Source: a virus
UHGV virus genome: UHGV-0341269
Length of the DNA stretch: 34,383 nucleotides
Strand: one strand, 5' to 3'
Positions 1 through 34,383 of the stretch are shown here, piece by piece. A program made the translations under genes and the position numbers. The notes beneath the pieces were generated by a model. It had not been told where the DNA came from and did not search any database. It saw nothing but the letters and a program-made list of their open reading frames with translations. Every line of letters starts with the position of its first letter. Within the stretch, counting starts at the first letter, position 1.

Positions 1-56
1 ACCTTGTTGACGGGAGGTAAGGAACCCAGAGACTGAACAACTGAAAGAACAAAATC
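1..56 (+). promoter_or_regulatory. Promoter/5' leader unit A (3' part); -35-like TTGACG at 8-13, conserved leader CTGAAAGAACAAAATCATG ending at the ATG of 57..932; the 5' part of the unit is at the window end (34346-34383)
   Basis: Near-identical to the internal unit at 1201-1261 (CTTGTTGACGG[G/A]AGGTAAGGA ... CTGAAAGAACAAAA[T/C][C/A]ATG), read directly from the sequence. Confidence 0.5.
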
Positions 57-932
57 ATGGAAATCACCAACACCAAAAACTTGACGGCGGAACAGATTGT
101 CCGGGCACTCAATTCTAAAGGCTATCTCTACTATGGCGAATCTGCCCGCGTCTGGAACGGCAACACGCAATCCCGAATCTACTTTGGCCGTGATTTTGTT
201 ACTATCCTCCCGGACGGAACCATCACCAACGACAAAAGCGGCAAGCGGACACTCACCATTGGAGACGAAGCCGTCGAAGCCATCCGAGACATTGTAACCC
301 CTTCCGCCTCTGCGGAAGAGCCGCAGGAAAAACCTGCCGGAGAATCAGCCACCATCAACACCACAACAACCCGCGGAACGGAAGTAGCAATCACTCTCAC
401 GGCAGATACAATCACCGCTGAACTCACAATTCCTCCTTTTGGCAAATTCACCACGGAAGCGGACATTGCACCCCTGAAGGGGCAATTTGCCCTGCGCGGC
501 AAGGTTCCGACCGGGGAAAACTTGTTTATCACCGTTGCAGAAGACGTCATCACGGACATCATTGCCAAACGTCAGCAGCTTTTCCAAAAACAAGAAGAAA
601 GGCTTTTCCCCGGAATTTCTGAACTCCGGGAAATAACCGCGCGTTGGAACAAGGCATGGGATAAAAACCGCCGGGCATGGGACAACATCGAAAACAACCC
701 TGCGTATAGCCCCATCAACACCGCAGCCATTGAATCCGAGTTAAACGCCGCCCGCGCCAAATACCCCCGCGCCGCACTGGCCCTAAACGCAACAAGCTAT
801 ACCCTGGCGAGCCATCACAGCAAAATAGCCGCAGGAAAAAAAGCCCTGGAACTCTTGAAAAATGGCGGAAGCTTGGAAGAAGCTCAATCAATTCTTGACA
901 ACTGGCTCCCTCAAGAGGCCATGTGGGACTAA
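57..932 (+). CDS. Hypothetical 291-aa protein, first gene of the only plus-strand operon; no recognisable motif
   Basis: Long ATG-initiated ORF preceded by the conserved promoter/leader unit; opposite orientation to all other phage genes. Confidence 0.6.
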   Translation: MEITNTKNLTAEQIVRALNSKGYLYYGESARVWNGNTQSRIYFGRDFVTILPDGTITNDKSGKRTLTIGDEAVEAIRDIVTPSASAEEPQEKPAGESATINTTTTRGTEVAITLTADTITAELTIPPFGKFTTEADIAPLKGQFALRGKVPTGENLFITVAEDVITDIIAKRQQLFQKQEERLFPGISELREITARWNKAWDKNRRAWDNIENNPAYSPINTAAIESELNAARAKYPRAALALNATSYTLASHHSKIAAGKKALELLKNGGSLEEAQSILDNWLPQEAMWD

Positions 933-947
933 ACAGAAAACAAAATC

Positions 948-1181
948 ATGACTATCCAAGAATTCCTCGACTGGATTTACAAGACCTATGAATTAAAAAA
1001 TCCTTATGATGCGGTAAAAAAGGCTATGGAGCTTTTAAAGGTTACGGAAATGAGTATCTATCATTGGAAAAATGGAAAAAGGAAGCTACAGCCTTATATG
1101 CAGCAGTTAATCGCTGTGACGATTGAAAACCATGATTTGAAAAAAAGTTGTCGGGAAAGTAATTTTCTCTTGCGTCACTAA
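948..1181 (+). CDS. Small HTH DNA-binding protein (Cro/Xre-like, 77 aa)
   Basis: Motif KKAMELLKVTEMSIYHWKNGKRKL resembles the helix-turn-helix of Xre/Cro proteins (…TISNWENGKR… pattern); its stop codon TAA (1179-1181) lies inside the operator palindrome. Confidence 0.55.
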   Translation: MTIQEFLDWIYKTYELKNPYDAVKKAMELLKVTEMSIYHWKNGKRKLQPYMQQLIAVTIENHDLKKSCRESNFLLRH

Positions 1182-1193
1182 ACATTGTTTAGT
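1177..1193. promoter_or_regulatory. Operator-like inverted repeat ACTAAACA-T-TGTTTAGT (copy B)
   Basis: Perfect 8-bp arms with a 1-nt spacer, immediately upstream of the -35-like TTGACG (1206-1211); a second copy is at 34360-34378. Confidence 0.5.
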
Positions 1194-1258
1194 ATATTGG
1201 TCTTGTTGACGGAAGGTAAGGATCCGGAAACAGAACAACAAACTGAAAGAACAAAACA
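1194..1258 (+). promoter_or_regulatory. Promoter/5' leader unit B (TTGACG at 1206-1211, conserved leader ending at ATG 1259)
   Basis: Direct repeat of the 1-56 unit; it drives a possible 32-aa ORF (1259-1357) that converges on and overlaps the 3' end of minus-strand gene 1299-1556. Confidence 0.4.
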
Positions 1259-1298
1259 ATGAATCAATACACCTACATCACCACCGCTTACGGACCAG

Positions 1299-1556
1299 CT
1301 AAAAATCACGCCCCTGCTTGCTCAAATAATGCACACAGGGACGTGACCCGGTTTTGACCACGTCGCCAGTCCTTGCCAGGTAATCCAGCCTGTGGGACAC
1401 GTTACTGGGGTCCAGATGGCACCTGTCAGCAATCTCCCGTGACGTTCTTCCCGGATGATCTCGGACCTCCATCAGGATAAGCAGCTGCGACGGCCGCACC
1501 CTCTGGCGGACAATGTTCCGCAACAGGTCTTTTCTGACTGACGACATGTTCTTCAT
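1299..1556 (-). CDS. Winged-helix (MarR-like) DNA-binding protein, 86 aa from the MKNM start
   Basis: LLILMEVRDHPGRTSREIADRCHLDPSNVSHRLDYLARTGDVV fits a winged-HTH; ATG at 1556 sits 8 nt after an AGGGAGG motif and 4 nt after the DnaB stop, so the two are translationally coupled; the ORF track's longer 1592 start is probably spurious. Confidence 0.5.
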   Translation of the reverse strand: MKNMSSVRKDLLRNIVRQRVRPSQLLILMEVRDHPGRTSREIADRCHLDPSNVSHRLDYLARTGDVVKTGSRPCVHYLSKQGRDF

Positions 1557-2890: not shown

Positions 2891-3706
2891 TTAAATGTTT
2901 TTTCTAAATCTTGGATCGAAGGGGTCTCTTTCCACTCCTGGTGATTGCCCTTTTGTTTCGAGGTTCCTTGCCCAACGCTGGGCGTAACTCCAAGCATTGC
3001 TTTTCCAGTTTGAAATAGGCACGCCTGACCTGTCCACCCAACCCAAACCGTCCCGATCCGCCCAGTATTGCTGGGCGCATTCTGGAATCTCTCTGGGGGG
3101 TAGGAGCAAGCAGCCTCTTCCAACCTCGTTTTTCAGGTGGGCTTCCACTTCTCCCGGTGAAGAAGGAAGAGAAGAACGAGAAGGAGCAGTTGCCGAACGC
3201 GAGCCGTTAGGCGAAGCTTCCTTCGTCTCCGTCTCCGATTTCGTATACGTATCCGTCTTCGTCTCCGTCTCCGTATAAGCGGTGGATTTCCGTGACTCAC
3301 CGTTATTCACCGTGGATTCCCGTGAACTACCGTGACTCACTGTATTACACGGTGAATCACCGTCAGGAAGCGGGAACTTGGGCTTACTCTGTCTGCGCTG
3401 CCCGAAATTGATGATCTGCACGTAATCCTTGCCCCCGACACAGTATGCCCTTACAAGCCCGGCTTCCTCCGTTTCGTGAAGGCAGTCTTGAATGTCCTGG
3501 TTACTGATTTTGTCAAGGTGCAGGGGGAATAAGCGAGTCCTCAATACCGTAGGGCGAGCGTCAAACAGGCCGTAGTCATCCGCCACCAACAGGAGCCGAT
3601 GGAAGAAGCATTCGGTACGCCATGAAAGTGCCGCGACCTTTTCTGAATCAAGGAACCCCTCTCTAATCATTCGTGATGTTGCCATACCCTTTAAGCATAA
3701 TTTCAA
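2891..3706 (-). CDS. Putative phage replication initiation / replisome-organiser protein, with a TETE-repeat linker
   Basis: Lies immediately upstream of dnaB in the same operon; the N-terminal domain resembles phage replisome organisers; the central low-complexity linker is encoded by an iteron-like DNA repeat array. Confidence 0.45.
   Translation of the reverse strand: MKLCLKGMATSRMIREGFLDSEKVAALSWRTECFFHRLLLVADDYGLFDARPTVLRTRLFPLHLDKISNQDIQDCLHETEEAGLVRAYCVGGKDYVQIINFGQRRQSKPKFPLPDGDSPCNTVSHGSSRESTVNNGESRKSTAYTETETKTDTYTKSETETKEASPNGSRSATAPSRSSLPSSPGEVEAHLKNEVGRGCLLLPPREIPECAQQYWADRDGLGWVDRSGVPISNWKSNAWSYAQRWARNLETKGQSPGVERDPFDPRFRKNI
3281..3360. repeat. Eight consecutive 10-bp iteron-like repeats (consensus CGTGANTCAC), flanked upstream by two copies of TCGTCTCCGTCTCCG (3224-3238, 3259-3273)
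   Basis: GGTGGATTTC/CGTGACTCAC/CGTTATTCAC/CGTGGATTCC/CGTGAACTAC/CGTGACTCAC/TGTATTACAC/GGTGAATCAC read directly; the period is one helical turn; they lie inside the initiator CDS, as in lambda O/ori. Confidence 0.55.
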
Positions 3707-3755: not shown

Positions 3756-4247
3756 TCATAACACTGCCACCTTTCCATACCCCCGGTTTTGCAGTGTATG
3801 CAGTAGGGGTGCCTCGGTATTATCCCACGCCACAAGGCAACTTGGCGCGTTGGGCTGGTTTCCGTGGGTCTCACCGTCCGGGCGGCAAAAGCGGATGCGG
3901 CCTTTCCAAAGGAACAGATACCGGGCACGGTGCAGCACGCACCGCTGGAACCAGCGAGTATCTGACCTCATGAAAATGAGTGCCAGACCTCCGCCGACAT
4001 GGTTACTCATACGTTCCATGAACGCTTCTGCTTCATTCCCATAAGGAGGGTTAAGCCATACGCGCCCCTCCCATGGCATCAGAAGGCCGTTATCCTCCAC
4101 GGTGTAGTTAACACGGGCACAATCCCACGGACGCACGGTAGCGGCGCAGGGGTCCACGTCGAACTGTCCCAGCAGATCCAATACGTAGCGCGGAGTGAGC
4201 CAGACGTTGGTAGTTTGCGCGGTTTTGGCAGTGTTAAAGGTATTCAT
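3756..4247 (-). CDS. DNA N6-adenine methyltransferase (phage Dam-like)
   Basis: Catalytic NPPY motif (WLNPPYG) in a ~160-aa protein typical of the phage Dam family. Confidence 0.75.
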   Translation of the reverse strand: MNTFNTAKTAQTTNVWLTPRYVLDLLGQFDVDPCAATVRPWDCARVNYTVEDNGLLMPWEGRVWLNPPYGNEAEAFMERMSNHVGGGLALIFMRSDTRWFQRCVLHRARYLFLWKGRIRFCRPDGETHGNQPNAPSCLVAWDNTEAPLLHTLQNRGYGKVAVL

Positions 4248-5224
4248 TCTCCCTCCTTTCCGCGTCGGAATCTGCTGAGCAGAACCCGGAATGCTGTTGC
4301 CGCCACTGCCGGAACTTGTCCGTTGCCAAGGGCTTCAATGCGGTCCACTCTAGCGGCCACCCCATGAGCCACTCGGTCCACGTCGGGTTCAGCTGACCAC
4401 CATTCCCCGCAGTCATCTGTTTCCGCTCTTCCGTCGTGACAATCCCTTCGGCTTCCAGGGCTTTCATTTTCTGAAAAGCCCCACTTCCTCCGCACATGCC
4501 TTTTGTTCTTGGGGTAGGAAATCTGCTGGCTATAGTTCCCAGGTTCGGGGACTTCCGATTGCCCTGGCTGGAGCCGCTGTCCTTCCAATCCCGTGAGGTT
4601 GGAGTCGGGAATTTTGCAATCTGGTCGTTCAGGTTCCGACTTCGGGCTGGGTCTTCCCATCTTCTGGCTTCTCCCGTCCTGAAATCCCTGGCTTGCGGGG
4701 TTGCAAATTTCATGCCCTGCCCCAGCGGCGGAGTTGACAGCAAGTATCCACATGCGCTTACGCTCATGCGGGGCACCCACGTCGTCCGCTCCCAGCACCA
4801 TCCATTCCGCATCATACCCGATCGCGGCCAAGTCCCCAAGAACACATCCAAGCCCGCGAGAAGTGAGCATTGGGGAGTTCTCCACAAAGACGTATTTCGG
4901 TCGTACTTCGCCAACAATCCGGTGCATTTCCCGCCAGAGTCCAGAGCGGGCGCCATCAATGCCGGCACCTTTACCTGCCGCGCTGATGTCCTGGCACGGG
5001 AAGCCTCCAGATACCACGTCAACAAGGCCGCGCCATGGTCGCCCGTCAAAGGTGCATACGTCATCCCAAACCGGGAAAGGCGGGAGTAGGCCGTCATTCT
5101 GTCGGGCGAGCAGTACGCTTGCGGGATAGGGTTCGAGCTCGACGGCGCAGACGGTGCGGAATCCGAGCAGCTCGCTGCCAAGTATTCCTCCACCAGCGCC
5201 CGCGAAAAGATGTAGCTCATTCAC
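4244..5224 (-). CDS. DNA (cytosine-5)-methyltransferase
   Basis: Motif I LFAGAGG, motif IV GFPCQDIS, motif VI VENSP, and a C-terminal LGNGQVP (motif X-like); the stop overlaps the Dam start. Confidence 0.8.
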   Translation of the reverse strand: MNELHLFAGAGGGILGSELLGFRTVCAVELEPYPASVLLARQNDGLLPPFPVWDDVCTFDGRPWRGLVDVVSGGFPCQDISAAGKGAGIDGARSGLWREMHRIVGEVRPKYVFVENSPMLTSRGLGCVLGDLAAIGYDAEWMVLGADDVGAPHERKRMWILAVNSAAGAGHEICNPASQGFQDGRSQKMGRPSPKSEPERPDCKIPDSNLTGLEGQRLQPGQSEVPEPGNYSQQISYPKNKRHVRRKWGFSENESPGSRRDCHDGRAETDDCGEWWSAEPDVDRVAHGVAARVDRIEALGNGQVPAVAATAFRVLLSRFRRGKEGE

Positions 5225-5586
5225 TCTCCCTCCTTTCTCGGCTCCCAGTTGACAGCAAATCCCTCGTTGATGCAGGGGTTACAAACAACCGGCACGGGTT
5301 TAATATTTTTGTAAGCGCAGTTGTGGCAATCGCGATGGATTAAAGGCACCCACGCCCGGCACGCGGCCCGTTTCTGGCGGACGGTATAGATTTTCCCGGC
5401 AAGGTCCGTTGCCATTCTTAAGATCCTTTTTTCAGAGGGCATCAAAAGGTAATATGGCTCTCCAAATTCATGAATGGCGTGTTGCCGGATTTTCTGAATG
5501 GTTTCCCTGACGGACTCCACGGATTTCCCGTACTCGTAAAAAGCTTTCTGCTCAGGCGTCATCTTCATGCGAGCACCCTTTCTCAA
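5221..5586 (-). CDS. Hypothetical protein with a C-terminal Cys cluster (CHNC…CNPC)
   Basis: ORF with an ATGA stop/start overlap to the downstream MTase gene. Confidence 0.4.
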   Translation of the reverse strand: MRKGARMKMTPEQKAFYEYGKSVESVRETIQKIRQHAIHEFGEPYYLLMPSEKRILRMATDLAGKIYTVRQKRAACRAWVPLIHRDCHNCAYKNIKPVPVVCNPCINEGFAVNWEPRKEGE

Positions 5587-5809
5587 TTAAGGATTTAAGT
5601 TCATTGAAACAACGGAGGCGTGAGGCATTCTTGGTCGTGCAAATAAGGTGCTGCGCCCACCGTGCATGTCGTTTGGTGGGGTACCCCATGCGGTAACGGC
5701 CCGTTATGCCATTGTGGTGCACAATCGCGGCCTGAACTTCGTATTTCCGGCTGTCGGTTTTCTTCATGGGGCAAACCTGCTGGACGATGATATGAGGGTT
5801 CTTTTTCAT
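5552..5809 (-). CDS. Hypothetical small protein; weak HNH-like HHNG motif
   Basis: IVHHNGITG … HARWAQHLIC loosely resembles HNH nuclease cores; low confidence. Confidence 0.3.
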   Translation of the reverse strand: MKKNPHIIVQQVCPMKKTDSRKYEVQAAIVHHNGITGRYRMGYPTKRHARWAQHLICTTKNASRLRCFNELKSLIEKGCSHEDDA

Positions 5810-6132
5810 TGTTCCGCCCCTCCTTTCCGTTCAAGCTCCCACGGATATGTGTCGATTTTACCGTCAACCAAAGTTCGGAATATTAAGTTTCCTTGTTCTT
5901 CGTCGAATCTATCATCTACCGCCGCAAGATCGCCTGTTATCCCATATTCGTTTTCAACAGGATCACCGCCTCCATTATGAAGCAAATAATCCAATGGTTC
6001 ACCGTTTTTATCTGCTATAATAACATGTTGACCATTATTCCAACCAACGATCGGATAAATGCATCCTGCAACAAAACCTCCTGATGATACTAAGCAAAGG
6101 CATTCTTTATATGTTTTCTTAAATCTATTCAT
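5806..6132 (-). CDS. Hypothetical protein encoded in an AT-rich island
   Basis: ORF in a region (about 5830-6180) whose base composition is clearly lower in GC than the flanks. Confidence 0.4.
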   Translation of the reverse strand: MNRFKKTYKECLCLVSSGGFVAGCIYPIVGWNNGQHVIIADKNGEPLDYLLHNGGGDPVENEYGITGDLAAVDDRFDEEQGNLIFRTLVDGKIDTYPWELERKGGAEQ

Positions 6133-6133
6133 T

Positions 6134-6601
6134 TTAATTTCCTTTCTTTAATTTAAGTTTTCCGCTTGGACTAATTGTCCAATCATCAAAAGTGACGGTG
6201 CCGGACAGATTGATCACGGGGTAGGCGTCATAGGGACGGCAACCAAACTTGCCTTTATCGTTCTTCACTCTTAGCCATGCGCCCCATTTTGCACCGATAA
6301 CGGTATATCTATGTCCTCTAACTATGACTTGCTGACCGTGCCGGAAGCGGGTGCCGTAGATGGCGTTGAGGGCGTCAAGATCGACTTGAGCGGCGTTCCT
6401 CTCCGCCTTTTCCTTCTTCCGTCTCCTCTTCTCGCGGGCAGCCTCTTCGCGAGCCTTGCGTGCCTCGTTGGCCTGGTTGGCGCGGAGTATCTCCATAGAC
6501 TCGCGCTCGGCTTGTTCCTGGCTCTTCGTGAGGCCCGCCTTCTTACGGAGATTGTACGCAATCATGACCTGCCGTTTTTTCTCTCTTTCTTCGGGACTCA
6601 T
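6134..6601 (-). CDS. Hypothetical basic protein (start at MSPEE, ATGA-coupled to the upstream gene)
   Basis: ATG 6601-6599 overlaps TGA 6600-6598 of the DUF1064-like gene; the longer 6724 start overlaps that gene by 127 bp. Confidence 0.45.
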   Translation of the reverse strand: MSPEEREKKRQVMIAYNLRKKAGLTKSQEQAERESMEILRANQANEARKAREEAAREKRRRKKEKAERNAAQVDLDALNAIYGTRFRHGQQVIVRGHRYTVIGAKWGAWLRVKNDKGKFGCRPYDAYPVINLSGTVTFDDWTISPSGKLKLKKGN

Positions 6602-6942
6602 TCCGCTTCTCCTTCCTGGATTGTTTCGATTTCCCAACCCGTTTTTGTCTGCTTGGCAGCGATAAAAACAAAGGGGAACTTGTCGGCGGCCGTCTTGATT
6701 TTTACCCTGGCGTCGTCGCGCCAAAAGCCTTTCACTTCGTGGAATTCAAGGGTGCCGTCAGGGCGGACAACCATGAAATCCGGCGTGTATGAGCAGCGGT
6801 TCCCAAGGACCAGTTTGACGGCTTCAAACTTGAATTCCCTTATTTCCCCCTTGTTTTGGAGGTCAGACAGGTAAAAGCAATAGGCGGCTTCTGTTTTATT
6901 CATCACGCCGGGCCGGTGGATAGCTCTTGCCCTGGTTCTCAT
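6598..6942 (-). CDS. DUF1064-like PD-(D/E)xK nuclease (putative phage Holliday-junction resolvase)
   Basis: YTPDFMVV…EFHEVKG…K pattern matches DUF1064; the start ATG overlaps the stop of the exonuclease gene (ATGA). Confidence 0.55.
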   Translation of the reverse strand: MRTRARAIHRPGVMNKTEAAYCFYLSDLQNKGEIREFKFEAVKLVLGNRCSYTPDFMVVRPDGTLEFHEVKGFWRDDARVKIKTAADKFPFVFIAAKQTKTGWEIETIQEGEAE

Positions 6943-7658
6943 GCCGCCCTCCCTTCTGCTGCCGGGCGAATCTCCGGCATGATGCGGGTGTATGCCTCAA
7001 GGTATTTTGGGCCGAATTCGTCCAGAGCCGCCTTAATGCGGTCGGTGTACTCGTCCCATTCCACTTTGACCAAAAACGGGCGCAGTCCGGGGCAGTAGGA
7101 AAGGAAATACCACGCCCGCAAGCCAGTCACAGCCATGGAGCCGTGCACCTGCGGCTTATATTTGTCCGGCAGCACGCCGTCCAGCAGATACCTGGCATGA
7201 TGTTTGGAGAGCGGGCACTTGATTTCAAGGCCGGCAATCACAAGATCAAGCCCGTCTTCCAGATTTTCAAAAACAAGTCCGTCAGGGCTGCACCCGATAG
7301 GGGCCGTTTTGCGGCGGATAAATCCAACTTCTTTTACCGCTTTGCCGGTCAAGGTCGCGAAAAGCTCGCGGGCTTCCGGTTCCAGGGCTTCCCCGCGATC
7401 CGTGTGAAAATTGCCTTCAAAGGTTATTTCATCCGGACGCAGACAGGAGCAGCACAGTTCGATGATTAAATCATCCTGCTGGGCTGACGGCTTCCCGGTT
7501 TTGGGAGTGATCAGTCGGTCAAAGTTGCTGGCGGTCAGATGACCGGAACGCAATTTAAACCATAGGTCGCTCCGTTGTGGGACATCCTCGTAAATAACTA
7601 TATTTTCAAGGTCTAACATAACTTTAGTAGTCCTCTCTATTGGCTGGTACATACTCAC
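6939..7658 (-). CDS. YqaJ-like phage exonuclease (lambda Exo / RecE-type PD-(D/E)xK)
   Basis: SDLWFKLRSGHLTASNF (the YqaJ N-terminal motif) and DGL…GLEIKCP (D…ExK). Confidence 0.75.
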   Translation of the reverse strand: MSMYQPIERTTKVMLDLENIVIYEDVPQRSDLWFKLRSGHLTASNFDRLITPKTGKPSAQQDDLIIELCCSCLRPDEITFEGNFHTDRGEALEPEARELFATLTGKAVKEVGFIRRKTAPIGCSPDGLVFENLEDGLDLVIAGLEIKCPLSKHHARYLLDGVLPDKYKPQVHGSMAVTGLRAWYFLSYCPGLRPFLVKVEWDEYTDRIKAALDEFGPKYLEAYTRIMPEIRPAAEGRAA

Positions 7659-8556
7659 GTTCCTGCTCCTTCAGACTTCCAAAAAAATCATCGGTATCAT
7701 CATTTGGAGGCGGTAATGCCTCCGATGCCGTAGGCCGTTTTTCCTCCGGTTTGGGCGGGTTAAAGGGGTCTATTTCCTCGTTTTCATCCTTGGACGGGGT
7801 TACATTCCGCATTTCGCTTCCAAATTCCTGATCGTCGGCGCTGCTCATGGCTTCTTGGATGTAGAGGGGCAAATCCCATTGCTTGGAGGCACGCTTGATG
7901 ACCGTTTTGAGCCCCATTTGCCCGAAGTCAGTCACCCACGGACCTACTACTTCCCCTTTCTTGTTCCGGGACTTGGTGCGGGCCTTGATTTCCTCCACGG
8001 CGCGCAGGCTCATGCGTTCCCCGTGTAGGTAGAGGTCCTTGTCTGTCCAGGTGCAATAAAAACCCCTGATGGGCGCCGTGCTGTCATCCCATTCCGGGAT
8101 GTGGCCCATTGCGAATTTTCCTTCTTCCAGGCCCCAGGAAAATGGCTCCCCCTCTCTCACAATTCCAATATTGAGGTTGGTGACGCCATTGGAGCGGGCC
8201 ATACGCATCAGGCCGCGGGCGGAGGGGACAGCAACGCAGGTCAATACAGACCGGCCGCTTGCCTTATCATTGCTCCAAAAAGGAACAAGATAGCCGTGGA
8301 TGCCGTCAGGCTCACAACGCATCATCAGCAGGTTTTTCAGGGATGCAATCAGCGTTACAGGGGCGCATTGCTGAAGGAGTGGGGTTTTCTGGCAGCAGTG
8401 CCAGAAGATACTGATACAGCGTTCCGGCGTCATCATGCCCTCTACAAGCTGGGCAATGTGTCTCTTCATGTCCTCCGACATCACAATTTCATGGAGTGTC
8501 TTTTTCGGGACTGGCGCCTGGGGCAAATCTAGTTTATGTGTAGGTGCGTTACTCAT
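7624..8556 (-). CDS. recT: RecT-family single-strand annealing protein
   Basis: C-terminal PWVTDFGQMGLKTVIKRASKQWDLP is typical of RecT; it is paired with the YqaJ exonuclease. Confidence 0.7.
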   Translation of the reverse strand: MSNAPTHKLDLPQAPVPKKTLHEIVMSEDMKRHIAQLVEGMMTPERCISIFWHCCQKTPLLQQCAPVTLIASLKNLLMMRCEPDGIHGYLVPFWSNDKASGRSVLTCVAVPSARGLMRMARSNGVTNLNIGIVREGEPFSWGLEEGKFAMGHIPEWDDSTAPIRGFYCTWTDKDLYLHGERMSLRAVEEIKARTKSRNKKGEVVGPWVTDFGQMGLKTVIKRASKQWDLPLYIQEAMSSADDQEFGSEMRNVTPSKDENEEIDPFNPPKPEEKRPTASEALPPPNDDTDDFFGSLKEQEREYVPANREDY

Positions 8557-8588
8557 AATCTTTGCATGGTGTTTTTGTTCTATTGGGT

Positions 8589-8972
8589 TCAGTTAAAAAG
8601 TGTTTTGAGCAGGAGGAAAATTAAGAATAAAAATCCTCCTCCAGCGGCAATTACTCCACACCACAAAATCAGGTAAGCGAGGATTTTGGAGAGGAGGTCT
8701 TTTGATTGTGCGGCCTGGGTGTAGTTCCAACAGCGCTCCGCTTCGTCAGGGATGCCGTTGAGACGCTCCCGGGCGCACAGGCGACACAGATAGCGGGCGC
8801 AGAAGACGCCGTCCTGATGGTCCCCTACCAGGGACACCCACGAAGACGAGGCGTTCAGCGGTTCGGCGCACATGTAGCAGCGCGCCGTTTTGGCGGGGTG
8901 CGGGTTGTTGGTGAGTGTTTCCACCATGCCCTTGTAGGGCCCCCGGTCGATGATGTGTTGATGTGTGGTCAT
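8589..8972 (-). CDS. Cys-rich (putative zinc-ribbon) protein with a C-terminal transmembrane anchor
   Basis: CYMC … CARYLCRLC, then a hydrophobic C-terminus ILAYLILWCGVIAAGGGFLFLIFLLL. Confidence 0.4.
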   Translation of the reverse strand: MTTHQHIIDRGPYKGMVETLTNNPHPAKTARCYMCAEPLNASSSWVSLVGDHQDGVFCARYLCRLCARERLNGIPDEAERCWNYTQAAQSKDLLSKILAYLILWCGVIAAGGGFLFLIFLLLKTLFN

Positions 8973-9322
8973 TGTTTTGATTGGTTGGAGAGAAAATCTC
9001 TGACTTCGCGCATGTTGAAGCGTGCTTCGCCCTTCCTGCCCCGTTGATTGTTCATAGGCGTCATCTTGGTAATTTTCCCAAGCCTCACCCCTTCCGACAA
9101 ATAAGGAGTAATACCACTGACGGAGTAGTGGAACCGTTCGGCGCAGTCTTTTGCGCTTCCGAATTCATCTACCGGAACAAAATTATTCATTCCGACGCTT
9201 GACGCTTCAGCCGAGGAAGGAACCGGAGTGTCCGCCAATTCCCTCAGCACTCCGGACAGCACTTCCAAGGCATCCGCAAGGCTGGCTATCGTTTTTTCGT
9301 TCCCGTTCATGGCTTTGGTCAA
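8969..9322 (-). CDS. Hypothetical protein with a C-terminal HTH_17/excisionase-like DNA-binding domain
   Basis: AERFHYSVSGITPYLSEGVRLGKITKM…ARFNMREVRDFL follows the AlpA/Xis-type HTH pattern. Confidence 0.4.
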   Translation of the reverse strand: MTKAMNGNEKTIASLADALEVLSGVLRELADTPVPSSAEASSVGMNNFVPVDEFGSAKDCAERFHYSVSGITPYLSEGVRLGKITKMTPMNNQRGRKGEARFNMREVRDFLSNQSKQ

Positions 9323-9507
9323 AAGTCGTCGTTGTGTCCGTCAGGGTTGTCCGTCGTGGCATGGTCCCGTTCGTACCGCACCAGGGCGTTTTCGAGGGCC
9401 GCGGCTGCGGTTTCGTGTTCGTTCATCAGCCGTTCGGCATCTGCGTGACTCACAGCTACATCATCCACACGGATGCAGCGGTCTTCTTCGTCGTATTCGA
9501 TGCTCAT
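9319..9507 (-). CDS. Hypothetical acidic small protein
   Basis: Short ORF tightly packed between two HTH_17-like genes. Confidence 0.3.
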   Translation of the reverse strand: MSIEYDEEDRCIRVDDVAVSHADAERLMNEHETAAAALENALVRYERDHATTDNPDGHNDDF

Positions 9508-9719
9508 TTTCGCCCTCCTTTCTTCAAAAATTCTTGAGATCTTTTCTCAAGCCACGCCGTTACTTCGTCAAGTTTGTAACGCGGGTGTGTTCCTTTTCCT
9601 CCCAGCCCGCCGGAAAAATAAACACGGGGACAACCTTCCTTATTAAGTCGAACTAGAGAACCCTTGCTAATGTTCAGGGTCTTGCGTAGTTCCTCGCTGG
9701 TGATGTATGGTGTATTCAT
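9504..9719 (-). CDS. Excisionase/AlpA-like HTH_17 DNA-binding protein
   Basis: YITSEELRKTLNISKGSLVRLNKEGCPRVYFSGG…RYKLDEVTAWL is the classic HTH_17 pattern. Confidence 0.6.
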   Translation of the reverse strand: MNTPYITSEELRKTLNISKGSLVRLNKEGCPRVYFSGGLGGKGTHPRYKLDEVTAWLEKRSQEFLKKGGRK

Positions 9720-9760
9720 ATGTTTTTTCTTGTTTGTCTTTGATGTAAACGCTATTGCCT

Positions 9761-9967
9761 CTACTTCCGTTTAAGCCTATTCTCTGTATCCATGATTACT
9801 TTAATTTCTGTTGATTGTTCTTCTTCGATAGCCAATAGACCGTTTTTAATTATTACTTTCGGGTATTTCTTCTTCACGGTTAATCTTTTGTTATCCTTGT
9901 AAAAACCATGATAAGGTTCATAACGAATGATAGAGAGGTCGTTATGAACGTCCAAGCTACCAAGCAT
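9761..9967 (-). CDS. Hypothetical protein in an AT-rich island
   Basis: ORF in a ~270-bp low-GC segment (9720-9990). Confidence 0.3.
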   Translation of the reverse strand: MLGSLDVHNDLSIIRYEPYHGFYKDNKRLTVKKKYPKVIIKNGLLAIEEEQSTEIKVIMDTENRLKRK

Positions 9968-9980
9968 TGCCAGTCAGTCA

Positions 9981-10256
9981 TCATTTAGCCTCCTTTCGTG
10001 TTATTCTCGCGGTGCCGGATATAAAGAGTTCCTCACCGTCCGGTTTAGTGACCAGATAGCCATAAATATCCTTTTTATAATCACTTATTGCCTTCACGCA
10101 CTCAGGGTCACTAGTGGAAAAAGAAATATCGAGAAGACCTGGCTGTTCGATCTTAATAATCCATTCCCGTTCCCCTTTCCAAATCCAGTCATAAGGGCGT
10201 GGGTTACAGGCGCACAGAACAAGCCCGGACAAAACGAGGGCAGCCAGCGCTTTCAC
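9981..10256 (-). CDS. Small secreted/lipoprotein (moron candidate)
   Basis: N-terminal signal peptide MKALAALVLSGLVLCAC with Cys residues in a lipobox-like position. Confidence 0.45.
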   Translation of the reverse strand: MKALAALVLSGLVLCACNPRPYDWIWKGEREWIIKIEQPGLLDISFSTSDPECVKAISDYKKDIYGYLVTKPDGEELFISGTARITRKEAK

Positions 10257-11044
10257 TTCTTCACCTCCTTCTGCTCGGTTTTATTCCCCGTCATCCGCTT
10301 CAACAGCCATACTTGACCTTTAGGCGTCAGATACGGGGTTGCTTTGCTTTCCGCTCTTCCGCTCGCGTGCTGGATAATCCGGTAACTGACCCGAAAACGA
10401 CCGGCTTCCACATGTTCCTGGGACGGCACGTTGCGGCGGTTTCCTGTCTTCCCAAGGATGCCTTCATTGCGCAGCAGCTCAAAAAGCCGGTTCTGTCCGA
10501 TTTCCCGTCCGTTCTGTGCCAGCACCTTGGCGAATTCTCCAATCAGCATGCAGCCGGCGGAGACTTCCACGCTCTTTCCAAATTCTGTGTAGGGAGCGTC
10601 CTCTTCTATCTTGGCTTCAAGAGCTTTTCTTTTGTCCTGCTCATCTTTGAGCGTCTGAAATACCTTGATGGCGTTCTCAGGCTTGGAAATCAACTCAAGA
10701 AGTTTTTCGCCCGTCGCATAGATGCCGTGCTTGCGTATTGTCGGTAGTACTTCTTCAAAGACCCAAGCCTCGAATCTCTTCGCTGATTCCAGTTTGGAAC
10801 CACAGATCAAACGCATCATGTCGGGTTCGTTGATGATGCGAATCTCCTGTACTCCTCCGGGAGTTTGAAGGGGGTAGCGTTTCACGACCCCCTTACAATG
10901 TCGGTTCATGGCATCAGTTTCATTGGCGTAACCAAGAGCGGCACACACGTCTTTTCCGACGAACCATGGCTCTTCGTCAAAGGTGACTGTCCTGACGGAA
11001 CAGCCCAAAGCGGCGTTGTTGAATGGTACTATGGTGTTGTTCAT
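10253..11044 (-). CDS. Phage antirepressor (Bro-N domain with a KilA-C/ORF6C-like C-terminal domain)
   Basis: The N-terminal FVGKDVCAALGYANETDAMNRHCKGV block is the Bro-N signature. Confidence 0.65.
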   Translation of the reverse strand: MNNTIVPFNNAALGCSVRTVTFDEEPWFVGKDVCAALGYANETDAMNRHCKGVVKRYPLQTPGGVQEIRIINEPDMMRLICGSKLESAKRFEAWVFEEVLPTIRKHGIYATGEKLLELISKPENAIKVFQTLKDEQDKRKALEAKIEEDAPYTEFGKSVEVSAGCMLIGEFAKVLAQNGREIGQNRLFELLRNEGILGKTGNRRNVPSQEHVEAGRFRVSYRIIQHASGRAESKATPYLTPKGQVWLLKRMTGNKTEQKEVKK

Positions 11045-11049
11045 GTTGT

Positions 11050-11286
11050 TTATCGGTTGGCGGTTTCGGTTTTCTTTATAGGTGGTTCACCACCTATAGG
11101 TAAAAAAACTCCCTTCTTTTTGATTCTCTTTTTTATAGGTGGTTCACCACCCGCGAGTAAAAAAACTACTTGCCCGGAAACTGATCTTTGTTCTTTCCGC
11201 GCAATCAATTTTATTTGCTCAAATAAGTCAATAGGGAGGTTAATTGTTATTTGCTTTTTCTCGTATTTCTCGGGCGATGTTTTCAT
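11050..11286 (-). CDS. Ribbon-helix-helix (Arc/CopG-like) DNA-binding protein with a repetitive GGEPPIKK tail
   Basis: ITINLPIDLFEQIKLIARKEQRSVSGQVVFLL has the RHH beta-alpha-alpha pattern; the tail repeats are encoded by the operator-like DNA repeats. Confidence 0.5.
   Translation of the reverse strand: MKTSPEKYEKKQITINLPIDLFEQIKLIARKEQRSVSGQVVFLLAGGEPPIKKRIKKKGVFLPIGGEPPIKKTETANR
11077..11098. promoter_or_regulatory. Operator-like inverted repeat TATAGGTGG-TTCA-CCACCTATA upstream of the antirepressor gene (partial second copy at 11134-11151)
   Basis: 9-bp perfect arms; part of a ~40-bp direct repeat (11076-11114 and 11128-11168) embedded in the 3' end of the RHH gene. Confidence 0.5.
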
Positions 11287-11671
11287 AATCTTCGGGTGTA
11301 AGGATTACGTTTTGAGTTTGTTGAACTAAATAAGCGGTAATGATTTCAGTCATCGTCATATTCAGTTCTTTTGCTCTCTTTTGAAATTTTCGGAAGAGGA
11401 CGATGGGGATCCATACTGAAATCTGTTTTTTGTCTATCTTCCGTTGACTTGGCATGCGCTCAACATAATCGGTGGTTAACCACCAGTCAACACTATTTTT
11501 CATCTTTTTTACATTTTTTTCATCCAGCATCATCCCGGATCTCCTTCCTAATTTTTTTTCATCATTAGAATTAAGCGCGTAATGTAGATAAGTAGACACA
11601 TCTACATTGATATGCACACCTAAGGAATCTTTGATCGCCGAACGAGGAAACGAGGAGATTGACGAGTTCAT
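11240..11671 (-). CDS. Ribbon-helix-helix domain protein (the N-terminal extent is uncertain)
   Basis: QISVWIPIVLFRKFQKRAKELNMTMTEIITAYL follows the RHH pattern; the gene is AT-rich. Confidence 0.4.
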   Translation of the reverse strand: MNSSISSFPRSAIKDSLGVHINVDVSTYLHYALNSNDEKKLGRRSGMMLDEKNVKKMKNSVDWWLTTDYVERMPSQRKIDKKQISVWIPIVLFRKFQKRAKELNMTMTEIITAYLVQQTQNVILTPEDYENIAREIREKANNN

Positions 11672-11814
11672 TTCTTCTTCTCATCCTTTTGAGTGATGTT
11701 TCGCAAGATCCTCTTTGTGGTTCGCCGGTAACCCTCCACAATGCCGAGACCGAAACAAGTAGCCCCGAAAAGCACAGCCAGCAAGAAAAACACAAGCATC
11801 ACGTTACCCGACAT
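11668..11814 (-). CDS. 48-aa small membrane protein (MSGNVMLVFFLLAVLFGATCFGLGIVEGY…)
   Basis: Hand-translated; one TM helix; its stop TGA overlaps the ATG of the downstream RHH gene (ATGA). It is not in the ORF track because it is shorter than 60 aa. Confidence 0.3.
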   Translation of the reverse strand: MSGNVMLVFFLLAVLFGATCFGLGIVEGYRRTTKRILRNITQKDEKKK

Positions 11815-11990: not shown

Positions 11991-13178
11991 TTACAAAACA
12001 ATCTTGCTGGATATTTCCTCTATTGCATGCACGACATCCTGCGAGTCGGGCCGGAAATATACCCGTTCAATCTCTTCAGAGTCATGCCCTACAATAAAAC
12101 GGCACAAGTCCGCCGGCACCCCTGCCAACCGCAAAATCGTCACCGCGGTCGCCCTCAGGCTGTGAAAGCTTTTTTCAGACAGCACGCGCTTGTCTCCCTT
12201 CCCTTTCCTTTCCCCGGCAGAAATGATGCCGTGTTTTTTCAGAAGTCCGGTAAACTCAAGAGAGAGCTTGCTGGACTTCCCGCCGCCTTGTGCGTGTTTC
12301 ATGGCGGCCAAAGGGAACACAAATTCATTGATGGAATATCTCTCCCTCTCTTCCAAAATCTCTTTCAGCGGTCGGATGATGGGCTTGTTCATGCGCCGCT
12401 TGGTTTTTTGTGAGGTCATGGCAATCAGTCCACCGTCAAGGTTGACCTGCTCCCATCTGAGGGTGGCAATATCGCCCAAACGCTGGCCGCCCGTATAAAG
12501 GCATACCCGTATCATGTCCGGCCATTCACCCGGTAAAATTTCTACCAGCCTCTTGACTTCTTCCACGGTGAACGCGTTGCGCTCCTGTTTGTCGTCCTGC
12601 TTTTTTTTCTTGTCCAGCCTGGCTCCCCTGAAAGGATTGGAGATGATCAATTCTTTTTCGACAGCCTGATTGAACGCGCAGGAAAGAGATTCGAGATACC
12701 TTGATACTGTACCGGATGACACGCGCTCCATTTCTGTCTCCGCAAACCGTCTCACGGTGTCTTTGTTGATGGAGGCTATGGCTTGCCCTCCATCATTCCC
12801 CAGGAACAAAATAAACTGCTTGATGGCCTTCCCGTCTCTTTCGTGTGCCTGAATCTTGCCGGATCGTGATTGCAGCCATTCATGGAGATACGCTCCAACG
12901 CTCACGGCCTTTCTGCCAAGGCTGGCCGCCTGAACATCTCCGCCAGCGATAGCTTTGAGCCGCTGCGAGTCAACAAAGCCGGTCTTGTGTCCATGCTCAA
13001 GCTCTTCGGCAATAAGGCGAGCCCTGGCCTCGTTTTGCGCTATGACCGCTCTTTTGTTTGCCCCGGGTGGAATAACCTTTGGCACCACGTCAATACGAGT
13101 GGTTTTCCTGACCTCTTTGCCGTCCAGCGTCTTGAAGACGGCTACCCATTTATTGCTTCTTTTGATAATCCCCGCCAT
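11991..13178 (-). CDS. int: Tyrosine site-specific integrase
   Basis: C-terminal catalytic region HSLRAT … VGHDSEEIERVYF (H-x-x-R and the Tyr nucleophile); N-terminal arm-binding-like domain; the first ATG is 13178 (MAGIIKRSNKW), and the ORF track begins at TTG 13190. Confidence 0.85.
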   Translation of the reverse strand: MAGIIKRSNKWVAVFKTLDGKEVRKTTRIDVVPKVIPPGANKRAVIAQNEARARLIAEELEHGHKTGFVDSQRLKAIAGGDVQAASLGRKAVSVGAYLHEWLQSRSGKIQAHERDGKAIKQFILFLGNDGGQAIASINKDTVRRFAETEMERVSSGTVSRYLESLSCAFNQAVEKELIISNPFRGARLDKKKKQDDKQERNAFTVEEVKRLVEILPGEWPDMIRVCLYTGGQRLGDIATLRWEQVNLDGGLIAMTSQKTKRRMNKPIIRPLKEILEERERYSINEFVFPLAAMKHAQGGGKSSKLSLEFTGLLKKHGIISAGERKGKGDKRVLSEKSFHSLRATAVTILRLAGVPADLCRFIVGHDSEEIERVYFRPDSQDVVHAIEEISSKIVL

Positions 13179-13180
13179 AG

Positions 13181-13386
13181 AACTGTACAATTTTTAAAAC
13201 TTGTACAGCCACTTGTACAGCAAGCATTCCGTTTTCTGTGGTAATGTAGCGTAATAAAAAAGCACGGAAACCTTGTAAAATCAGGCTTTCCGTGCTCTAG
13301 CGTAATAAAAAAGTGGCGGAGCGGGAGGGATTATATTTATTGATTATAAATATACTTATGAATATAATGTTCAGCTTTTTGTACAG
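13181..13386. other. Candidate attP region: four TTGTACAG repeats (13183-13190 inverted, 13201-13208, 13213-13220, 13379-13386), a 16-bp direct repeat AGCGTAATAAAAAAG ×2 (13248-13262, 13299-13313), and an AT-rich inverted repeat TATATTTAT-N5-ATAAATATA (13332-13354)
   Basis: Repeats read directly; placement next to int is typical for attP, with arm-type sites flanking a core. Confidence 0.4.
13253..13296 (-). terminator. Rho-independent terminator (minus strand): 10-bp stem AGCACGGAAA/TTTCCGTGCT, 16-nt loop, then a U-run
   Basis: Perfect stem 13261-13270 / 13287-13296; the T-run on the minus strand corresponds to plus 13253-13260 AATAAAAA; it lies downstream of the tail/GT operon. Confidence 0.6.
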
Positions 13387-16375: not shown

Positions 16376-16957
16376 TTATTTTTTGTCGGCGATCTGCTGA
16401 AGCAACGTCAGCACTTTCGCAAACCAAAAACACAGGAGGCAAGAGAAAGCCCCAGAAATCAGGTAAATGAAACATAAGGCCTGTTGCCCATCATCTGCGG
16501 TAGAGTAAAACAGCACAATCCCAGCAAGTAAAGCTATTACGCCAACAACACGGAATATCCCCTCTATTGTGATTTTTAGAGGCTCTTGATCGTTCAGTTC
16601 TTGGATTTCTTTCCAAGAAGGATTTTTTCTGGAATCTCTAAGAGAGCATTCAATAAAGCTCTTCTTTGGTTTGCACTCCGTTTCTTTTTTTTCTGCTTTT
16701 CTTTTTTCTGACTCATCTAAGAGAACTTCAATAAAGCTCTTCTTTGGTTTGCGCTCCGTTTCTTTTTCTTCTGCTTTTCTGTTGGTGTTTTTGGTCAGAT
16801 GATAAACCCTTCCAAATGGCATCCACTCTTGACCGCCTTCAGGGAAAACAAGTGTTTCTGATAAGATTTCCCCTTCCTTGTATAAGGCCTCAAGTTCTTC
16901 AAAAGAGTAGGGGCCCTCGGCGTTGTTTGAGTTGGAAGCAACGTAATAATTAGCCAT
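16376..16957 (-). CDS. DUF4339 (GYF-like) domain membrane protein with an internal 26-aa tandem repeat and two C-terminal TM helices; AT-rich moron inside the tail module
   Basis: YYVASNSNNAEGPYSFEELEALYKEGEILSETLVFPEGGQEWMPFGRV matches the DUF4339 consensus; hydrophobic C-terminus; GC content is far below the flanks. Confidence 0.5.
   Translation of the reverse strand: MANYYVASNSNNAEGPYSFEELEALYKEGEILSETLVFPEGGQEWMPFGRVYHLTKNTNRKAEEKETERKPKKSFIEVLLDESEKRKAEKKETECKPKKSFIECSLRDSRKNPSWKEIQELNDQEPLKITIEGIFRVVGVIALLAGIVLFYSTADDGQQALCFIYLISGAFSCLLCFWFAKVLTLLQQIADKK
16636..16791. repeat. 78-bp tandem direct repeat ×2 (…TCTAAGAGA…TTCAATAAAGCTCTTCTTTGGTTTGC[A/G]CTCCGTTTCTTTTT…)
   Basis: Read directly; it encodes the KAEEKETERKPKKSFIE repeat of the DUF4339 protein. 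Confidence 0.7.
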
Positions 16958-31950: not shown

Positions 31951-32193
31951 CGCTCGCCGGGCCAGGTCCGTTTCAAGCTCCTTGATTCTGGTCTCCTGTT
32001 GGGCTACCAGCTTCGGGGCGTTGAGGATATTTCGGACGGCGTTAAACCTGCGGCTTAATGATGGAAAGGGATTGGTTGCAGGGGGAGGAGTTGGACCTCC
32101 GACACGGGGACAGGAACCCCGTATGATACCGTTTCACTACCCTGCGATTGAATACAAATCAACACATATAGATATGTTGATATATTGTCAACC

Positions 32194-34130: not shown

Positions 34131-34154
34131 GTTGTTTGTTCTTGTCTCTCCATA

Positions 34155-34186
34155 AGCAAAAGGGCGGCCGCCGAAGCAGCCGCCCT
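34155..34186 (-). terminator. GC-rich hairpin (AGGGCGGC / GCCGCCCT, 10-nt loop) followed on the minus strand by a UUUUGCUU tract; terminator-like
   Basis: Stem arms 34161-34168 / 34179-34186 read directly; the T-tract is only 4 nt long, so it is weak. Confidence 0.35.
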
Positions 34187-34359
34187 CTTGTAAGGAATTG
34201 GACGATACACGGCCAAAGGGAGAATTCCCTAAACAGGCAGTTTTTCAATCCACGCCCCGAAGGGCGGCATCTGAAAGAACATTCAGAATACCTTCTTTTC
34301 CCACATTTTTTGAAGCCGAGCAAAGTTTTTTTTGCACATGCTGCATTTTCCTCTTGCAC

Positions 34360-34378
34360 TACTAAACATTGTTTAGTA
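34360..34378. promoter_or_regulatory. Operator-like inverted repeat TACTAAACA-T-TGTTTAGTA (copy A; 9-bp arms)
   Basis: Identical core to 1177-1193; it continues across the window end into the promoter at 1-56. Confidence 0.5.
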
Positions 34379-34383
34379 AATTA

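Follow-up and report, generated by a model that had tools for sequence, protein, structure and literature searches.

A duplicated probable promoter unit with a palindromic operator in its spacer, and its candidate repressor, in a temperate Akkermansia phage

The virus genome UHGV-0341269 was analysed as a stretch of 34,383 nucleotides (hereafter the window), which represents the circularly permuted genome of a temperate Akkermansia phage, the closest annotated records being Akkermansia phages, and which carries two copies of a regulatory unit of about 100 bp. These units and the genes behind them probably constitute a negatively autoregulated accessory cassette with an acr-aca-like build, in which a 77-residue helix–turn–helix (HTH) protein would repress its own promoter and the downstream copy. 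This proposal is based on the architecture of the units and its conservation in related phages, on the predicted fold of the protein, and on the covariation between the operators and the recognition helices of the HTH proteins encoded next to them.

Architecture of the duplicated unit

A first-pass annotation, made from the letters of the window, had described a duplicated palindrome-bearing unit, and this description was borne out. The 17-bp palindrome ACTAAACATTGTTTAGT has exactly two exact copies in the window, at 1177–1193 (copy B) and 34361–34377 (copy A), with no third site at up to three mismatches, and two matches were obtained in 0 of 100 shuffles. Around each palindrome the repeat extends over about 100 bp, from about 1163 to 1261 in copy B and from about 34347 to 34383 plus 1–59 in copy A, and it includes the repeat families D11 (36 nt, 86% identity, covering the -35 to -10 region), D16 (24 nt, 92% identity, CTTGTTGACGG...) and D7 (21 nt, 90% identity, the leader before the ATG), the last of which is matched at 71% by a third open reading frame (ORF) start, at 948. 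Copy A spans the window ends, and the independent contig L009 runs through this junction uninterrupted, which identifies the window as a circularly permuted genome. The spacing described earlier was also found to be correct, as TTGACG (1206–1211) begins 12 nt past palindrome B, whose centre lies 21 nt upstream of this hexamer.

In our view, however, the promoter is not built on TTGACG. The comparison of homologous units indicates that each unit is most likely a sigma-70-type promoter, with a T-rich tract upstream, in which the palindromic operator fills the 17-nt spacer between the -35 and the -10. The elements of the two units are the following:

34354–34359, plus strand: putative -35 of promoter A, TTGCAC, preceded by a T-rich tract; its TTG is invariant in all aligned homologous units
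34361–34377, unstranded: operator A, ACTAAACATTGTTTAGT, filling the 17-nt spacer; its final T is the first base of the -10
34377–34382, plus strand: putative -10 of promoter A, TAAATT; TA...T is kept in homologous units, except in L146, where it ends in G
1170–1175, plus strand: putative -35 of promoter B, TTGCGT, from the match to the frame pattern
1177–1193, unstranded: operator B, the identical 17-bp palindrome, from the exact-match search
1193–1198, plus strand: putative -10 of promoter B, TATATT, from the match to the frame pattern; conserved in aligned units
6–33, plus strand: predicted 5' end of transcript A (about G6) and 5'-terminal hairpin, including TTGACG at 7–12
1205–1231, plus strand: predicted 5' end of transcript B (about G1205) and 5' hairpin, including TTGACG at 1206–1211

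The combined frame TTG-N4-ACT-N11-AGTA-N3-T has two matches in the window, against 0 expected. Homologous units were retrieved in two rounds, first by searching viral contigs for exact words and then with the small HTH protein as query, and about 20 distinct Akkermansia-phage contigs were obtained in this way; further family members were fetched independently of the palindrome. The frame, consisting of TTGnnn, a palindrome-filled spacer of 16–17 nt, TAnnn(T/G) and then TTGT(T/C), is kept in about 25 distinct Akkermansia-phage contigs, across which at least seven different palindromes occur. Three of the loci fetched without the palindrome keep the frame around a new one: both units of L142 read TTGTAT-T-AGTATACATTGTATAC-TATATT, L141 reads TTGATT-G-CTATACGTCGTATAG-TAAATT, and L146 reads TTGATT-T-ACTATCATTATGATAG-TAAAAG. 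In 21 unique units, and in a nine-unit alignment that covers four operator types, the columns that never vary are the -35 TTG, the outer operator bases ACT...AGT, TA..TT within the -10, and the TTGTTGA located at the predicted start, while variation is seen in the other hexamer bases, in the inner part of the dyad and in the flanks. Since TTGnnn-16/17-TAnnn(T/G) is kept around the palindrome in all homologous units, the palindrome would lie within the core promoter, in the classical position of a repressor site, and not in that of an activator or of an upstream repressor acting by looping, as had been suggested. The window has a second promoter (about 11475–11500, minus strand) in which a palindrome also occupies a 17-nt spacer, TTGACT-GGTGGTTAACCACCGAT-TATGTT, and we count it in favour of this arrangement.

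In Akkermansia muciniphila, the start sites mapped by Cappable-seq are associated with -35 and TATAAT-type boxes, and with a pyrimidine–purine step at the start (PMC4782308). Transcription of the two units is predicted to start at about G6 and G1205, 7 nt past the -10 and at a T-G pyrimidine–purine step, so that TTGACG would fall at about +2 to +7 of the transcript. In the predicted transcript this hexamer is part of a small 5'-terminal hairpin and, upon folding, the same hairpin topology, starting at the predicted +1, is obtained in 21 of 21 unique units. The single-sequence fold z-scores of the leader hairpin are unremarkable, and the unit leaders have no match in Rfam.

The first-pass annotation had taken TTGACG for the -35, placing the palindrome about 20 bp upstream of it as an activator or looping-repressor site. 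The hexamer does match TTGACA at five of six positions, and CTTGTTGACGG is kept in both copies, but at the distance where a -10 would be expected, 16–18 nt downstream, the units read AGACTG (A) and AACAGA (B), and a promoter scan was silent there too. Moreover, TTGACG drifts in homologous units, to TTGAAG, TTGATG, TTGAGA or GTCAGC, whereas the frame flanking the palindrome is kept throughout, and the conserved block begins precisely at the expected 5' end of a transcript from the upstream promoter. We therefore give very little credence to TTGACG as a -35.

Another possibility to consider is that the duplicated units are recombination linkers, marking module boundaries for cassette exchange, and that the palindrome is a by-product with no regulatory role. 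Their position on both sides of mosaic cargo and their recurrence across phage backbones would suit such linkers. However, selection keeps the promoter-defining bases together with a perfect dyad whose central base is free (T, A or G), and the sequence of the palindrome diversifies while its register is held, which makes the linker explanation barely credible at all.

The 77-residue HTH protein and its proposed operators

The first-pass annotation had also named the product of the ORF ending inside copy B as the candidate ligand of the palindrome and a possible autoregulator, and this idea gained support from both the fold prediction and the palindrome–helix covariation.

948–1181, plus strand: 77-residue Cro/Xre-like HTH protein, proposed repressor of operators A and B (AlphaFold2 (AF2) model, Foldseek, operator–helix covariation)

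The AF2 model of this protein (predicted local distance difference test, pLDDT, of 86) comprises four helices (3–13, 19–30, 34–41 and 49–76), with the recognition helix around residues 33–41 (TEMSIYHWK). The top Foldseek matches are all Xre/Cro HTH proteins, with a probability of up to 0.95 but weak E-values (0.1–1), and the structural neighbours include N15 Cro (root-mean-square deviation (rmsd) of 2.0 Å over 60 residues), which is a weak sequence match as well, C.Kpn2I, Aca2, Aca10, Aca11, HigA and P22 C2. No Pfam or PHROG profile is matched at E ≤ 0.01, curated HTH profiles such as HTH_3 and HTH_31 included. Among 1.84 billion proteins, this small family accounts for only 68 cluster representatives, and the HTH was found neither with a protein pattern in species-representative genomes nor with tblastn in the annotated phage collection. 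Every locus that encodes a member of this HTH family and has enough upstream sequence carries a unit of the same design upstream.

The operators vary together with the recognition helices, in the following pairs:

VTEM(S/A)(I/V)(Y/W)(H/Q)W with ACTAAACAnTGTTTAGT, in the window and its relatives
VSDILVWKW and VTEDAVWKW with ACTATAAAtTTTATAGT, in L042 and L145
TRVTVWRW, TPMTIWRW and RELSIWRW with ACTATC...GATAGT or the related ACTCAC...GATAGT, in L034, L035, L146 and others
TTKACISHW with AGTATACAnTGTATACT, in L142
ITENSIYKW with CTATACGnCGTATAG, in L141

Two HTH proteins that are 68% identical, with different recognition helices, go with different operators, whereas two that are only 47% identical and have VTEM in common go with the same operator. 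In L142, laid out in two units like the window, the change of the HTH protein was accompanied by a change of both operators, to AGTATACA. The half-sites of the window palindrome are ACTAAACA/TGTTTAGT, and a perfect dyad with a free central base is as expected for a protein-bound palindrome. On these grounds, the 77-residue protein is the best candidate ligand of the palindrome.

A lone half-site, ACTAAACA, is also found at 928–935, by the start of the HTH gene. We rejected it as an operator, given that the conserved C-terminal codons TGG GAC TAA account for it and that it is unchanged in L142, although the L142 operator differs. The stop codon of the HTH gene (TAA, 1179–1181) does lie inside palindrome B, as had been pointed out. 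Judging from the homopolymer just upstream, this overlap is incidental, since the window has an A7 tract (1140–1146) where relatives have A8, and the relatives' protein has 71 residues, instead of the 77 of the window, and ends before the unit.

In the proposed mechanism, a dimer of the 77-residue protein, encoded by the last gene of operon A, would bind the palindrome at about -28 to -12, where it would exclude RNA polymerase. Because the HTH gene lies within the operon it would control, together with a 291-residue cargo protein, this binding would result in negative autoregulation and, since copy B comes next after that gene, operon B further downstream would be capped by the protein as well. 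Upon entry or induction, the promoters would fire, the repressor would accumulate and the cassette would be turned down, so that the accessory proteins would be made in a pulse or kept at a capped level.

The same architecture could in principle be read by another protein, either a host Akkermansia regulator or a phage one, such as the MarR-like product of 1299–1592, in which case the 77-residue HTH protein would do something else. Such a binder could be argued for on the basis that an identical palindrome is a probable operator upstream of genes with MGI(T/A)ERK-starting products in about 44 Bacteroidota genomes, and that the palindrome is found in the same promoter register in an unrelated contig of 36% GC (L013), which lacks a homologue of the 77-residue protein in the 11.6 kb examined. 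Against it, the palindrome is present in 0 Akkermansia genomes of the species-representative collection, the MarR-like gene is found only in the nearest relative, whereas a gene of the HTH family accompanies every unit, and the operator variants track the HTH recognition helix, including the joint change of both L142 operators. A different binder is thus improbable, and we retain the 77-residue protein as the candidate. A host regulon for the palindrome was likewise rejected, as the genome scan gave no Akkermansia match and found instead an unrelated Bacteroidota operator of the same sequence.

The Bacteroidota site is a 19-bp dyad, TACTAAACAnTGTTTAGTA, present in the same approximately 44 genomes (Saprospiraceae, Cytophagales and Chitinophaga; loci L051–L130). 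Downstream of this dyad there is typically aaTTTGca, the -7 box of Bacteroidota, and then a gene whose product starts with MGI(T/A)ERK, a sequence that resembles the N-terminus of the TetR family; the dyad looks like an independent operator of the same sequence. In the unrelated phage contig L013, the site at 9633–9661 reads TTGACA-T-ACTAAACAATGTTTAG-TAATAT and is also divergent from a terS gene, with no homologue of the 77-residue protein within the 11.6 kb examined.

Several observations weigh against the regulatory circuit that we propose. The window hexamers match the Escherichia coli consensus in only seven (A) and eight (B) of 12 positions, and a consensus promoter/terminator scan over the units called neither the operator-in-spacer promoter nor the TTGACG promoter, so that the promoter call rests on comparative conservation. 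RNAalifold finds no compensatory pairs in the 5' hairpin, which leaves this structure tentative. The operator and the HTH gene are physically linked, and part of the covariation could therefore reflect a co-inherited module; only about ten independent lineages lie behind it, and the helix–operator code is not one-to-one, as TEDA and SDIL go with one operator. The use of the same 17–19-bp palindrome in Bacteroidota means that its sequence alone does not identify the binding protein. Finally, the cargo has no Pfam, PHROG or PADLOC matches, with the exception of a pentapeptide-repeat protein in relatives.

The HTH family also includes other arrangements. Some members are single proteins made of three to seven tandem domains of this type (L042, 3263–4198; also P0038–P0040 and P0042); an example is a 311-residue protein with four copies, of which only the last resembles the stand-alone regulators. 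L034 (1892–4201) and L035 (1858–4201) contain two complete tandem cassettes, each with its own operator type and HTH variant, one of 196 residues, whose N-terminal half is acidic and whose HTH is C-terminal, and the other a 66-residue HTH, which look like orthogonal regulators.

Cargo, lysogeny control and neighbouring elements

The genes and leaders of the cassette, and an element located between unit A and terS, are listed below:

57–932, plus strand: unit A cargo, a 291-residue orphan protein with no Pfam, PHROG or PADLOC match
1259–1354, plus strand: 31-codon remnant ORF, left by a deletion of about 1.0 kb, from the comparison with L009
41–51, plus strand: leader word CTGAAAGAACA, 6–16 nt before ATG 57; the leader is A-rich and lacks a Shine-Dalgarno (SD) sequence
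1243–1253, plus strand: leader word CTGAAAGAACA before ATG 1259, from a word search
34150–34292, minus strand: conserved structured element between unit A and terS (fold z = -5.0; RNAalifold)

A function for the 291-residue protein was looked for with profiles and a fold search, which led nowhere: the AF2 model (pLDDT 84) gave only weak and scattered Foldseek matches in PDB and BFVD, to PH/FERM-like or uncharacterised proteins, none of them informative. Only its N-terminal part, of about 110 residues, recurs in other cassettes. In relatives the cargo is mosaic and mostly orphan, including acidic proteins of about 100 residues, a pentapeptide-repeat protein and others. The HTH gene is the last one in nearly all loci, with the variable genes between it and the promoter; the exception is L144, where it is the first gene after the promoter. 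From this layout, the promoter/operator and the HTH gene are most likely a constant frame, into which different small orphan genes are swapped across Akkermansia phages.

In the window, copy B drives only the 31-codon remnant ORF. Compared with the near-identical L009, the window has a deletion of about 1.0 kb between short repeats, AAAA(C/A)TCACGCC (microhomology), with the junction at about 1301–1312. The deletion took the cargo of unit B, which in L009 consists of ORFs of 93 and 100 residues, and shortened the convergent MarR-like gene by its last 11 codons.

It had been noted that no CI/LexA-type repressor is encoded in this genome, and indeed no Peptidase_S24 protein was found in the window, which is compatible with the suggestion that the duplicated unit is the lysis–lysogeny (immunity) switch in an unfamiliar form, with the 77-residue protein as master repressor or Cro equivalent. 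The cassette is also the only clearly opposite-strand module, and the protein is Cro-like in fold. However, the window has only two operators, both of them in the same-strand promoters of the cassette itself and none near the minus-strand early or late genes; the cargo is mosaic and was partly deleted in the window without loss of the genome; and a separate control region, with ribbon–helix–helix (RHH) proteins and an antirepressor, is located by the integrase. In addition, the cassette is found in other prophage backbones that have their own S24 repressor 1–3 kb away. The same cassette (unit A, homologue of the 291-residue protein, HTH, unit B and two small genes) lies about 3 kb from an S24 CI-like repressor in a different Akkermansia prophage backbone, in L050 it is at the prophage end beside host genes, and more distant members of the HTH family also adjoin S24 repressors. 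We thus consider it extremely improbable that the duplicated unit is the immunity switch, which means that lysogeny control is to be sought elsewhere.

Other regulators of the window are a MarR-like protein, two RHH proteins, an HTH_17 protein and an antirepressor. The region at 10253–11700 (minus strand), upstream of and including the Bro-N/KilAC antirepressor gene and next to the integrase, resembles P22 immI. It encodes an RHH_5 protein (11050–11286), and a second RHH-like ORF forms the C-terminal part of 11240–11671, possibly leaderless from an ATG at about 11453. Upstream of the antirepressor gene it has dyads of the type GGTGG(T/t)(T/g)AACCACC, namely GGTGGTTAACCACC and two copies of TATAGGTGGTGAACCACCTATA, one of them in the 17-nt spacer of TTGACT...TATGTT. 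Lysogeny control would most plausibly lie in this RHH/antirepressor region, which is a stronger candidate for it than the duplicated unit.

The leaders of the cassette had been described as suited to translation without an SD sequence. The plus-strand leaders do lack one, but this is nothing special, as about two thirds of the phage genes are alike in this respect and most structural genes share SD-less, A/C-rich leaders similar to those of the cassette; by this comparison, the resemblance of the leader at the third ORF start (948) is generic. The genome has two classes of translation start, with a strong AAGGAGG in the early block (about 3756–10256), and none in most structural genes and in the plus-strand cassette.

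The structured element on the minus strand upstream of unit A consists of an inverted repeat in which the leader word occurs for the third time, the hairpin GCCGCCC-UUCG-GGGCG, and a strong intrinsic terminator, with a hairpin at 34162–34185 followed by a U-run, about 20 nt before the start of terS. The third copy of CTGAAAGAACA (34271–34281, plus strand) is on the 5' side of the element, 83 nt upstream of promoter A. With eight distinct sequences, RNAalifold gives 21 pairs, of which six are compensatory, and in several phage backbones the element has been conserved ahead of unit A, although the minus-strand gene downstream of it is not the same. In relatives, a change of the leader word goes with a change of the upstream word (CTGAAAGAACA(A), TCAGAAAGAAC and CTAGAAAGAAC), at a fixed distance of 74–83 nt; since the two match less well in some loci, and shuffled leaders give matches of similar length, this apparent co-change is only suggestive. 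The element could be a late-operon leader with a terminator (cf. lambda PR'-tR'), an antisense RNA or a shared protein site, and a conserved -10 for it was not located. The region 34131–34345 was also considered as a degenerate third unit and rejected, because beyond the word of 11–14 nt its local alignment is no better than with shuffles.

The minus-strand RNA carries UGUUCUUUCAG, the perfect complement of the leader word CUGAAAGAACA, which lies 6–16 nt before both cassette start codons, and hence it could act as a trans antisense RNA. A more far-reaching idea can be built on this, according to which the cassette would serve Akkermansia phages as a hotspot for anti-defence (acr-aca-like) or host-takeover functions, with an undescribed Aca-like HTH family of at least seven operator specificities, and an RNA of about 130 nt, divergent from just upstream of unit A, would shut off the SD-less translation of the cassette in trans when the opposite-strand (late) promoter fires. 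We find this extended scheme unlikely.

The minus-strand genes of the window include those for an integrase (11991–13190), the Bro-N/KilAC antirepressor, RecT, an exonuclease, a replication initiator, DnaB and an Sf6-type small terminase. Within or upstream of the replication-initiator gene (2891–3706, minus strand), repeats with a 10-bp period (GTGAnTCACC-like, 3282–3361) are probably origin iterons. A tRNA gene (32076–32146, minus strand; Rfam RF00005, 51 bits) separates the large-terminase gene from the next structural gene, a 57-nt direct repeat of 95% identity (16649–16705 and 16727–16783) lies within or near a GYF-domain gene, and 22174–24339 encodes a 721-residue tail-fibre-like protein with collagen triple-helix repeats.

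Comparison with known systems

The closest parallel to the organization of the cassette is found in the acr-aca operons (Aca1–Aca14), in which, likewise behind a strong promoter, variable small orphan genes come first and a conserved small HTH gene last. The inverted repeat bound by Aca proteins is always within the core promoter of their own operon (PMC9410906), and the same is observed here, as judged by sequence position. Aca regulators often also control the adjacent downstream operon, and the 5'-untranslated regions (5'-UTRs) have conserved motifs (PMC13551039); the cassette of the window likewise has a conserved 5'-UTR, and its regulator is predicted to control the neighbouring operon. 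Aca2, Aca10 and Aca11 are among the structural neighbours of the 77-residue protein, a likeness at the level of the fold only (E about 1). The protein does not group with a named Aca family: a sequence search of PDB retrieved no Aca chain even at E ≤ 10, and no Pfam family is matched. The two systems also differ in that the window cargo, at 291 residues, is larger than most Acr proteins, and in that the host is a verrucomicrobium. In our view, the likeness to acr-aca would be in how the cassette works and not in what it is, and an anti-defence or host-takeover role of the cargo is suggested by analogy and is not a result.

With the lambdoid Cro proteins (lambda, 434 and N15 Cro) the 77-residue protein shares a small, all-helical HTH fold, predicted to act as a dimer, and the operators share a 17-bp dyad with a free central base that overlaps the promoter. 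In contrast to the lambdoid systems, the cassette has no partner CI, no tripartite operator and no divergent PR/PRM pair, its operators are found only in its own promoter and in one neighbouring promoter, and in other phages it coexists with CI-like repressors. The controller (C) proteins of restriction–modification systems (C.Esp1396I, C.Kpn2I and C.BclI), also structural neighbours, are autoregulatory Xre-type HTH proteins of about 80 residues with palindromes at their own promoter. However, they are encoded first, bind two adjacent C-boxes, activate and then repress, and control an endonuclease gene, whereas the window cassette has one dyad only, located in the spacer, carries the HTH gene at the end of its operon and encodes no nuclease domain. 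The P22 immI system (Mnt/Arc-ant) corresponds to the RHH/antirepressor region of the window and not to the duplicated unit, which the present results remove as a candidate immunity switch.

A. muciniphila is a major gut symbiont, and gene regulation in its phages is essentially uncharted. Guilt-by-association through aca genes has led to the identification of many anti-CRISPRs, and in a similar way the combination of an operator-in-spacer promoter, variable genes and a small HTH gene could be used as a marker for accessory, possibly anti-defence, genes in these phages. Pairs of operator and HTH protein that are orthogonal to each other could also provide repressible promoters for a bacterium with few genetic tools. 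Taken together with the systems above, the duplicated unit is most likely a well-known kind of circuit, with a small HTH family that is new.

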